This document shows positions 1 to 3,000 of a stretch of DNA of 9,254 bases, one piece after another (position 1 is the first letter of the stretch; the number at the start of each line of letters is the position of its first letter). The position numbers are program-made. The DNA is from a virus (lineage: Duplodnaviria > Heunggongvirae > Uroviricota > Caudoviricetes): IMG/VR virus record IMGVR_UViG_2537562191_000043; one strand, 5' to 3'.

Positions 1-3000
1 TCATTTTTTCCAGAGGCGGTCGAACTCCGCCTTCGCAAAATAAGCGGAAGCCTGGCGAAGGATATCGTTACTGCGGCGCAGTTCACGATTTTCACGTTCC
101 AGCTCTTTCAGACGCTGACGTTCAGCGCTGGTGAGCCCACCATCACCGCCCCCGGTATCCCGCTCATGCTGGCGAACCCAGACACGCAGAGTCTCCGGCG
201 TACAGCCAATCTTTGGGGCAATGGAACAAATTGCCGCCCACTGTGAGTCATATTCATCCTGACTTTCCAGAACCATACGAATCGCCCGCTGACGGACTTC
301 GGGGGAAAAACGAGTATTTTTAGTCATCCTGTTTACCTCTTTCTCAGGGAGTTTAGTCTCCAGGATTTCCGGGGCGGTTCAGGTTTATTCGAATCACACG
401 ATGTAGGAACGCGCCTGTATGGTTATCTCAACTCATTCCAGGTGGTACTCGAAGCGCTATGCATGGCGATTATTCCTTTCTTTGTGAATCGGGTAGGGCC
501 AAAAAATGCATTACTTATCGGTGTTGTGATTATGGTGTTGCGTATCCTTTCCTGCGCGCTGTTCGTTAACCCCTGGATTATTTCATTAGTGAAGCTGTTA
601 CATGCTATTGAGGTTCCACTTTGTGTCATATCCGTCTTCAAATACAGCGTGGCAAATTTTGATAAGCGCCTGTCGTCGACGATCTTTCTGATTGGTTTTC
701 AAATTGCCAGTTCGCTTGGGATTGTGCTGCTTTCAACGCCGACTGGGATACTCTTTGACCACGCAGGCTACCAGACAGTTTTCTTCGCAATTTCGGGTAT
801 TGTCTGCCTGATGTTGCTATTTGGCATTTTCTTCCTGAGTAAAAAACGCGAGCAAATAGTTATGGAAACGCCTGTACCTTCAGCAATATAGACGTAAACT
901 TTTCCGGTTGTTGTCGATATCTCCCTATCCCTCAACCGGAAAATAATAATACTAAAGTGCTTAGCCCTGCTAATAATCACCTAATCCAAACGCCTCATTC
1001 ATGTTCTGGTACAGTCGCTCAAATGTACTTCAGATGCGCGGTTCGCTGATTTCCAGGACATTGTCGTCATTCAGCGACCTGTCCCGTGTATCACGGTCCT
1101 GCGAATTCATCAAGGAATGCATTGCGGAGTAAAGTATCGAGTCACGCCATATTTCGCTATCAGGATTCTGTGTGATGGTTACATCGCCCGGCCCAGGGCT
1201 GTTTAGTCATCAGCGCTTTCTGACAGTGCTGAGATTTCAACCTGTTGCAGTAAAAATGAGTAGATATAAGGCAAGTGTGCTGCCAAACCTATCTTTTACG
1301 GGGTGAAGGTAGATTTCGTTTGAAGGGTATCTGGTGTCCCCTGCAGGAATCGAACCTGCAATTAGCCCTTAGGAGGGGCTCGTTATATCCATTTAACTAA
1401 GAGGACATTGTTGCGTATTGATTTTGGTTGTTCACCATATGACTGATAATACCGTCTTTATGGTTTTAAAATCAAGGTGTAAGTTTGTTTTTGTTCATGG
1501 TTGATTATCTTCTTTTGCGTTGAAAAGTGTTTTGTTCACTTGCTAATGCGTACATATTGAGTACAGAATACATTATAAACTTGTGTACAGGATATAAAGC
1601 ATTGGCACTGAGCGACACCAAACTACGAGGCCTCTACGGAAAACCCTACTCTGGCCCTGCTGAAATCACCGATGGTGACGGGTTAAGTGTGCGGATTACT
1701 CCAGCAGGAACTATCACGTTTCAGTACCGTTATCGCTGGAATGGTAAGCCAGTACGTCTTACTGTCGGGCGCTATCCGTCTACTTCACTGAAGGACGCGC
1801 GTGTTATCGTCGGTGAGATGCGCGCATTGTACATGAAGGGAGTTAACCCTAAAAATTATTTTGCGCCCAGTGACGGCGAACTGACATTAAAAGAATGCCT
1901 GGATCAGTGGTGGGATAAGTATGTTACTGATCTGAAACCCAATACACAGACGCTTTACAGATCCGTCGTGTACAACACTATGTACACACAGTTTGAAGGC
2001 TCGCCAGTTGCCAGTATCCCAGTATCGGCATGGGCTCGTTTCTTTGACAAACAAGAAAGCCTCAACAAGAAAAAGGCTCGTGTTTTGTTGTTACAACTGC
2101 GTTCAGTTATTAACTGGTGTATCAGCCGCCAGTTAATCCCATCATGCGAATTACTCAAGCTTAGTGTTAAGAATATTGGGAAAAAACCAGATGTAGGGAG
2201 TCGTGTACTTACCTATACGGAACTGGCAAAAATTTGGCTGGCGCTGGAGAACTCAAAAGTAGTTACTTCCAACAAGGTGTTACATCAATTGCTATTGCTA
2301 TGGGGGGCCAGACTTTCTGAGCTACGTCTCGCGACAGCCAGTGAGTTCAACATGGAAGATTTGGTCTGGACAACCCCAAAAGAGCATTCAAAAATGGGGA
2401 ATATTATCCGGCGTCCGGTATTCACTCAGGTTAAACCTTATATCGAGAGATTGCTTAATGCGGGTTTTGATGTGCTATTCCCCGGGCAGGAAATAGATAA
2501 ACCTATTGATCGTTCGTCGGCTAATTTGTACATGAAAAAGTTAAGGGAGAAAATTGATATTCCTGAATGGAGAACGCATGATTTTAGGCGTTCTCTGGTA
2601 ACGAATTTATCTGGGGAAGGAATTATGCCCCACGTCACTGAAAAAATGCTGGGGCATGAACTTGGGGGAGTTATGGCCGTGTATAATAAACACGACTGGT
2701 TGTCGGAACAGAAAGATGCGTATGAGTTGTATGCTGATAAAATTTTCTGGCACGCTAAACAGCTCGGTTAATTCCTCCGGCTTTAAGCCATTGTTCAACG
2801 GCCTGACGACTATATCGCGCCGGATGAGTAAGTACTGGTTCCGGGAATCCGTGTTTTTTTCGCAAATTATACAAAGCTGTGCGCCTTTTTTGTAACAAAT
2901 CAGAAACCTCTTTTTCGGTCATTAAGTTGACTTCCATAGTATGCGCTCCTTTTCTACATGTATTTCAACAGCCTGATATCATCCACGCCCTAAAGGACGT

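Follow-up and report, generated by a model that had tools for sequence, protein, structure and literature searches.

Beside a tRNA gene in the 9,254-nucleotide stretch of DNA analysed here (the window), a permease reading frame opens at the first base after the end of an insertion sequence (IS), and the locus raises the question of what became of the rest of the gene. The original prediction held that the element had replaced the 5' two-thirds of a sugar permease gene, probably cscB, and that sucrose uptake would be impaired. The window corresponds exactly to positions 9539-18792 of locus L008, which comes from contig AEZU02000006.1 of E. coli 4.0522, a draft assembly in which this contig stops 72 bp past the window. 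The left edge of the window falls inside the first IS629 copy, and the 5' part of cscB therefore lies outside it. On AEZU02000006.1 the gene order is dsdA', dsdX', cscR, cscA, cscK', cscB-5', IS, cscB-3', argW and prophage integrase. The features of the window are as follows.

1..381, minus strand: IS629/IS1203 copy 1, left 381 bp, with the remainder left of the window (ORF translation; match to an IS3-family transposase model)
382..384: GGT, right-hand copy of the target-site duplication, codon Gly247 of cscB (junction comparison)
382..891, plus strand: cscB 3' fragment, codons 247-415 and TAG (reading frame; TIGR00882; alignment to intact cscB)
892..1331: spacer between cscB and argW, unaltered, the same as in O111 genomes with intact cscB
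1332..1406, minus strand: argW, tRNA-Arg, anticodon CCU (ARAGORN; annotation; PMC11251922)
1407..9254: lambdoid prophage inserted at argW, left arm, given as context and outside the pseudogene (ORFs; phage matches)
1602-2771, plus strand: prophage integrase
2755-2937, minus strand: prophage HTH gene
3016-3384, minus strand: prophage DUF1627 gene
3587-3988, minus strand: MT-A70 methylase fragment
4013-5322, plus strand: IS629 copy 2
8481-9254, minus strand: ead/Ea22, last of the prophage early genes

Identity of the permease gene

The 3' fragment directly abuts the left terminus of the IS (base 381), and its frame is open from base 382 for 169 codons, ending in TAG at 889-891; argW lies 440 bp away. 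The uninterrupted frame and the neighbouring tRNA gene were thus both as first described. The 169-aa fragment alone scored 223.4 bits against TIGR00882 (oligosaccharide:H+ symporter, cut-off 220 bits), with the match confined to the C-terminal part of the model (profile positions 244-396 of 396). Window positions 380-891 are identical to bases 737-1248 of the intact 1248-bp cscB of O111:H- strain 110512, and 100% identity over 512 bp excludes a chance match. A longer segment, window 380-1450, was also matched at 100% in many O111 genomes.

We aligned the fragment to CscB, LacY and RafB, and its best homologue was CscB rather than another transporter of this family. Genes that RefSeq lists as 'cscB: sucrose MFS transporter' match it at 99.0-99.8% identity, and the exact intact 415-aa protein carries the UniRef name 'Sucrose transport protein'. 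Amino acid identity to a plasmid lacY product is 32.6%, and it is 35.0% to the permease of a rafR-rafA-rafB-rafD-porin operon (the RafB context, in which the permease gene lies between those for an alpha-galactosidase and a GH32 enzyme). The intact O111 protein matched LacY structures with E = 3e-63; LacY and RafB share MFS subfamily and fold with CscB but differ from it in genomic context. In O111:H- 110512 the order is emrY, dsdA (with an internal stop), dsdX' (truncated), a LacI-type regulator (cscR), cscA, a fructokinase gene with an internal stop (cscK), the permease gene and argW. The same csc context, with cscR, cscA, cscK and cscB beside argW together with dsdX'/dsdA, is present in L008/L004 and in the O111 genomes L001 and L002, and the location of the csc locus at argW has been described (PMC11251922). 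Because the fragment is the permease of the csc cluster and has CscB-named homologues, with only ∼33-35% identity to LacY and RafB, the gene is, judged by sequence and gene order, cscB and neither lacY nor rafB, as the original prediction had thought probable. It is the same gene, in the same locus order and with the same argW neighbour, as that for the sucrose:H+ symporter of the csc regulon in EC3132 and E. coli W. Here, in contrast to those strains, IS629 splits the gene at codon 247, so that the 415-codon, 12-helix frame is broken by 1310 bp, no 415-aa product is possible and cscB is a pseudogene.

IS629 insertion in cscB and its predicted effect on the protein

The first IS629 copy occupies L008 8610-9919 (1310 bp, minus strand). 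It encodes orfA (108 aa, window 1-327) and orfB (296 aa), which overlap, and the PGAP label for a copy with the same sequence is 'IS3-like element IS1203 family transposase' with a programmed frameshift; IS1203 and IS629 are one and the same element. Its left terminus reads ...CCGGGGCGGTTCA and ends at window position 381, the outer end of the terminal inverted repeat at that base being TGAACCGCCCCGG..., and of the first 25 positions, 22 agree between the two ends of the element. BLAST of intact O111 cscB against L008 gave two matches of 100% identity with the IS between them, one for bases 1-742 (7869-8610) and one for bases 737-1248 (9918-10429). The 5' 741 bp of the gene thus lie directly beyond the 1310-bp element in AEZU02000006.1, and not one base of cscB has been lost. 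Three bases, the GGT of Gly247, are present on both sides as a target-site duplication, the left copy at L008 8607-8609 and the right copy at window 382-384. Uninterrupted cscB reads ...TATGCAGGTTTATTC... across the site (over a longer stretch, ...TTTTATGCAGGTTTATTCGAA...); the interrupted gene reads ...TATGCAGGT/TGAACC...GGTTCA/GGTTTATTC..., with slashes at the IS ends. The left junction in L008 is ...TTTTATGCAGGT/TGAACCGCCCCGGGTTTCC... and the right junction is ...CCGGGGCGGTTCA/GGTTTATTCGAA....

A duplicated GGT together with a complete cscB identifies the event as simple transposition, and as neither replacement nor deletion. The search for the 5' part beyond the IS, proposed with the original prediction, thus recovered it from the source contig, and the idea that the gene had been decapitated by replacement has to be given up. 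The portion absent from the window is also smaller than the two-thirds first given, at 741 of 1248 bp (59%). We have little doubt that cscB was split by ordinary transposition of IS629/IS1203 into codon 247, with nothing removed and both halves present, and that the strain is so predicted to be unable to import sucrose via Csc.

The two pieces of the gene fare differently. The 5' fragment is a 247-aa ORF that is stopped right after Gly247 by the TGA that opens the IS end. Followed upstream into the IS, the frame of the 3' fragment continues for 45 codons before it meets a TGA (244-246), and window 247-441 on the plus strand holds no ATG, GTG or TTG ahead of the GTG at 442 (codon 267). We found no ORF that joins the IS to cscB from a conventional start codon and no promoter-like site on the plus strand upstream of the fragment, and the IS end beside it is transcribed away from it. 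An ATG-start cscB remnant of 142 aa matches an exact product of AEZU02000006.1; for the 149-aa ORF from the GTG there was no exact product on record. Alignment with LacY places the break at residue 249/250 of that protein, which we take to be the periplasmic end of helix VII and not mid-helix. The 3' fragment would then presumably comprise the loop after helix VII and helices VIII-XII, with codon 267 already within the stretch aligned to what we take to be LacY helix VIII. R300, H320 and E323 of CscB, all on the 3' fragment, align with R302, H322 and E325 of LacY, residues that act in proton translocation, and the sugar-binding N-terminal half is presumably on the 5' fragment, from the known roles in LacY and CscB. 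This correspondence is by LacY alignment only, since we found no paper on the roles of CscB residues in the open literature. With the equivalents of R302, H322 and E325 all on the 3' fragment, neither piece would be expected to work alone. Given the missing start and promoter and an IS end transcribed away from the fragment, we infer that a functional permease is not made.

The junction (CGGGGCGGTTCAGGTTTATTCGAATC) was also looked for elsewhere. A 60-bp junction probe was searched against 5,426 complete RefSeq genomes and matched exactly in only one, that of O111:H8 strain 7-54 11A. This genome is without the prophage at argW, and in its PGAP annotation IS1203 is flanked by two pseudogenes, each a partial 'oligosaccharide MFS transporter'. 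The same junctions occur in LM996358.1 (L006/L021) and in GCA_002461455.1 (L010, L023), so that three assemblies besides 4.0522 share them. Three further short-read contigs sampled with the same cscB allele (L018-L020), to which a 168-aa product present in 31 blocks of the collection had led us, begin 2-3 nt past the junction.

These assemblies bear on two other accounts of the locus. One is that the IS, or a deletion mediated by it, removed the 5' part of cscB and left a 3' stump. The window, which begins inside the IS, shows no 5' cscB, and IS629 can delete adjacent DNA; its second copy in the window has no target duplication and has replaced 126 bp of a methylase gene. However, the full 5' 741 bp beyond the IS and the perfect GGT duplication are found in the source contig and in the three other assemblies, and removal of the 5' part of cscB is accordingly very improbable. 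The other account is an assembly artefact, with an IS copy misplaced in cscB. The 4.0522 genome is a draft and has two identical IS copies 3.6 kb apart, a setting prone to assembler error, but the identical junction in the independent complete genome of 7-54 11A, in LM996358.1 and in GCA_002461455.1, the contigs that begin just past it and a 3-bp duplication of the kind expected from real transposition make such an error scarcely conceivable.

A third account accepts the insertion and supposes that the halves form a working permease as separate, complementing polypeptides, as LacY split by engineering reportedly did in the work of Bibi and Kaback in 1990. The position of the break would suit this, the periplasmic end of helix VII being outside the middle of a helix, and the 5' fragment keeps the native promoter. 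The 3' fragment, on the other hand, offers none of the starts ATG, GTG and TTG ahead of codon 267, which presumably already lies in the helix VIII stretch, and it is served neither by an upstream promoter-like site on its strand nor by the IS end, which reads away from it. We regard a functional split permease as highly unlikely. The preferred sequence of events is then that IS629 landed in codon 247, duplicating GGT and removing nothing; that the 5' fragment (codons 1-247) still stands behind the cscK-cscB promoter and ends at the TGA of the IS; and that the 3' fragment (codons 247-415) is left without a promoter or usable start. Sucrose import through the Csc pathway would be lost and the strain would be sucrose-non-fermenting, and the insertion, unlike the homopolymer frameshifts of related strains, would probably revert rarely.

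Predicted sucrose phenotype and recurrent loss of cscB

A second intact copy of cscB could supply the missing permease. The 3' fragment had 2,654 occurrences, spread over 2,646 of the 5,426 complete genomes, with a maximum of two per genome and none on plasmids. From these counts cscB appears to be chromosomal and effectively single-copy, which makes a second intact copy in 4.0522 unlikely.

Published cases indicate what loss of the permease does. In STEC of clonal complex CC119 a frameshift in cscB abolishes sucrose fermentation and reversion in cscB alone restores it, a co-existing cscK mutation being tolerated (PMC10132054). A 10-bp insertion in cscB has been linked to failure to grow on sucrose, IS elements commonly interrupt cscB and cscK in Shigella, and in some E. 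coli a Scr (PTS) sucrose pathway coexists with Csc (PMC11251922). On the strength of the published cscB frameshifts, strain 4.0522 is likely to be unable to take up sucrose and is predicted to be sucrose-negative.

The lesion can be compared with those in both groups. The IS-interrupted cscB/cscK of Shigella represents the same lesion type at the same locus, with the permease broken and cscA and cscR intact; the elements there are IS1, IS3 and IS4 (PMC11251922), whereas the present one is IS629/IS1203, inserted at GGT in codon 247 of an STEC of O111 type. In the CC119 strains (O165:H25 and O172:H25), published as sucrose-non-fermenting, cscB is likewise inactivated and cscK is also defective, but the lesions are 1-bp homopolymer deletions that visibly revert (PMC10132054), and the IS insertion described here should revert far less. 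Lesions of this kind are already in the literature, and RefSeq carries an annotation of exactly this allele.

Other genes of the region carry lesions too. In all O111-type loci examined, codon 165 of cscK (L008 6883-7797) is an in-frame stop, dsdA (L008 2424-3737) contains an internal stop, and dsdX is truncated by the csc island. The island for sugar and D-serine use was already decaying before the IS reached cscB. The csc locus may have been compromised earlier by the cscK stop; the CC119 data suggest that loss of cscK would be tolerated.

Our literature search for the sucrose phenotype of typical O111 strains returned medium composition only. Sucrose and sorbose are present in Possé medium, used for differential plating of non-O157 STEC (PMC4483743, PMC4536017). 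Because the sucrose reaction is used in such differential media, a strain of O111 type whose cscB is stably disrupted could show an atypical colony colour on them. The lesion teaches nothing new about CscB or IS629 as such, and its importance is mostly practical. Most complete O111 genomes have an intact cscB and identical downstream sequence; the junction is rare, which makes it usable as a clade marker for a small O111 sub-lineage. The 247-aa N-terminal product was considered as an exact count of strains and rejected, as in at least one record, L024, it arises from a break at a contig end, in native sequence and without the IS junction.

The same cscB allele, with no substitutions, is also inactivated by single-base changes in other loci: a T deleted from a T5 run at codon 240 (L005 9183-10429), an A deleted from an A7 run at codon 205 (L009 9183-10429) and a T inserted in a T5 run at codon 235 (L007 9181-10429). 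One allele has thus acquired four independent lesions, IS629 at codon 247 and indels at codons 205, 235 and 240, and these independent indels indicate that cscB has been inactivated recurrently in this background. The four lesions, together with breaks near the IS site in a second allele, could reflect selection or on/off switching. We consider it unlikely that loss of cscB in this STEC lineage has been favoured by selection and is not neutral; if true, it would mean positive selection against sucrose:H+ symport, or a contingency-like homopolymer on/off system in which the IS allele is locked off.

The second allele is distinguished by A298 (A298 vs V298). Contigs L014-L017 start, and L024 ends, ∼5 nt from the IS629 site. 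L024, in which cscK is intact, ends on the N-terminal side with ...GCAGGTTT, and L014-L017 start on the C-terminal side with CAGGTTT or AGGTTT; the ends on both sides consist of native sequence, overlap by 7 nt and include no base of IS629. A 169-aa partial product of the A298 allele is present in 368 blocks of the collection. The breaks suggest that a different repeat element, one that makes a longer target duplication, has inserted ∼5 nt away.

The prophage arm and the second IS629

The chromosomal site of the csc/dsd island, argW, also serves as attachment site for the prophage that adjoins it on the right (PMC11251922 for the locus). Within the prophage arm, the second IS629 copy has no mismatch to the first over all 1310 bases, lies in inverted orientation and sits in the MT-A70 adenine-methylase gene, of which a 133-aa remnant again matches an exact product of AEZU02000006.1. 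No target-site duplication is present at this copy, the left flank being ...CTAC and the right flank TGCA..., and the element stands in place of 126 bp found in the sister contig LM996358.1 (L006 13551-13676), which is otherwise identical. This indicates an IS-associated adjacent deletion. Replacement of part of a gene by an IS, as proposed for cscB, thus does occur in the window, but at the methylase gene and not at cscB. A connection between the two inverted identical copies, through inversion or as a composite transposon, was considered and rejected, the target duplication of the first copy being intact on both sides. The cscB junction and a prophage with the second IS copy occurred together in none of the complete E. 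coli genomes searched.

Over window positions 1407-4012 the sequence matches Stx2-converting phage 86 at 100% identity; for other Stx2a phages among the matches listed, identity is 99.6-99.9%. The same prophage arm carries IS629/IS1203 at other positions in other strains, between the DUF1627 and DUF1382 genes in O111:H- 110512 (L002 13034-14247) and within the integrase gene in AR-0428 (L003 9969-11182). The ∼3 kb beside argW are a repeated target of IS629/IS1203 across strains.
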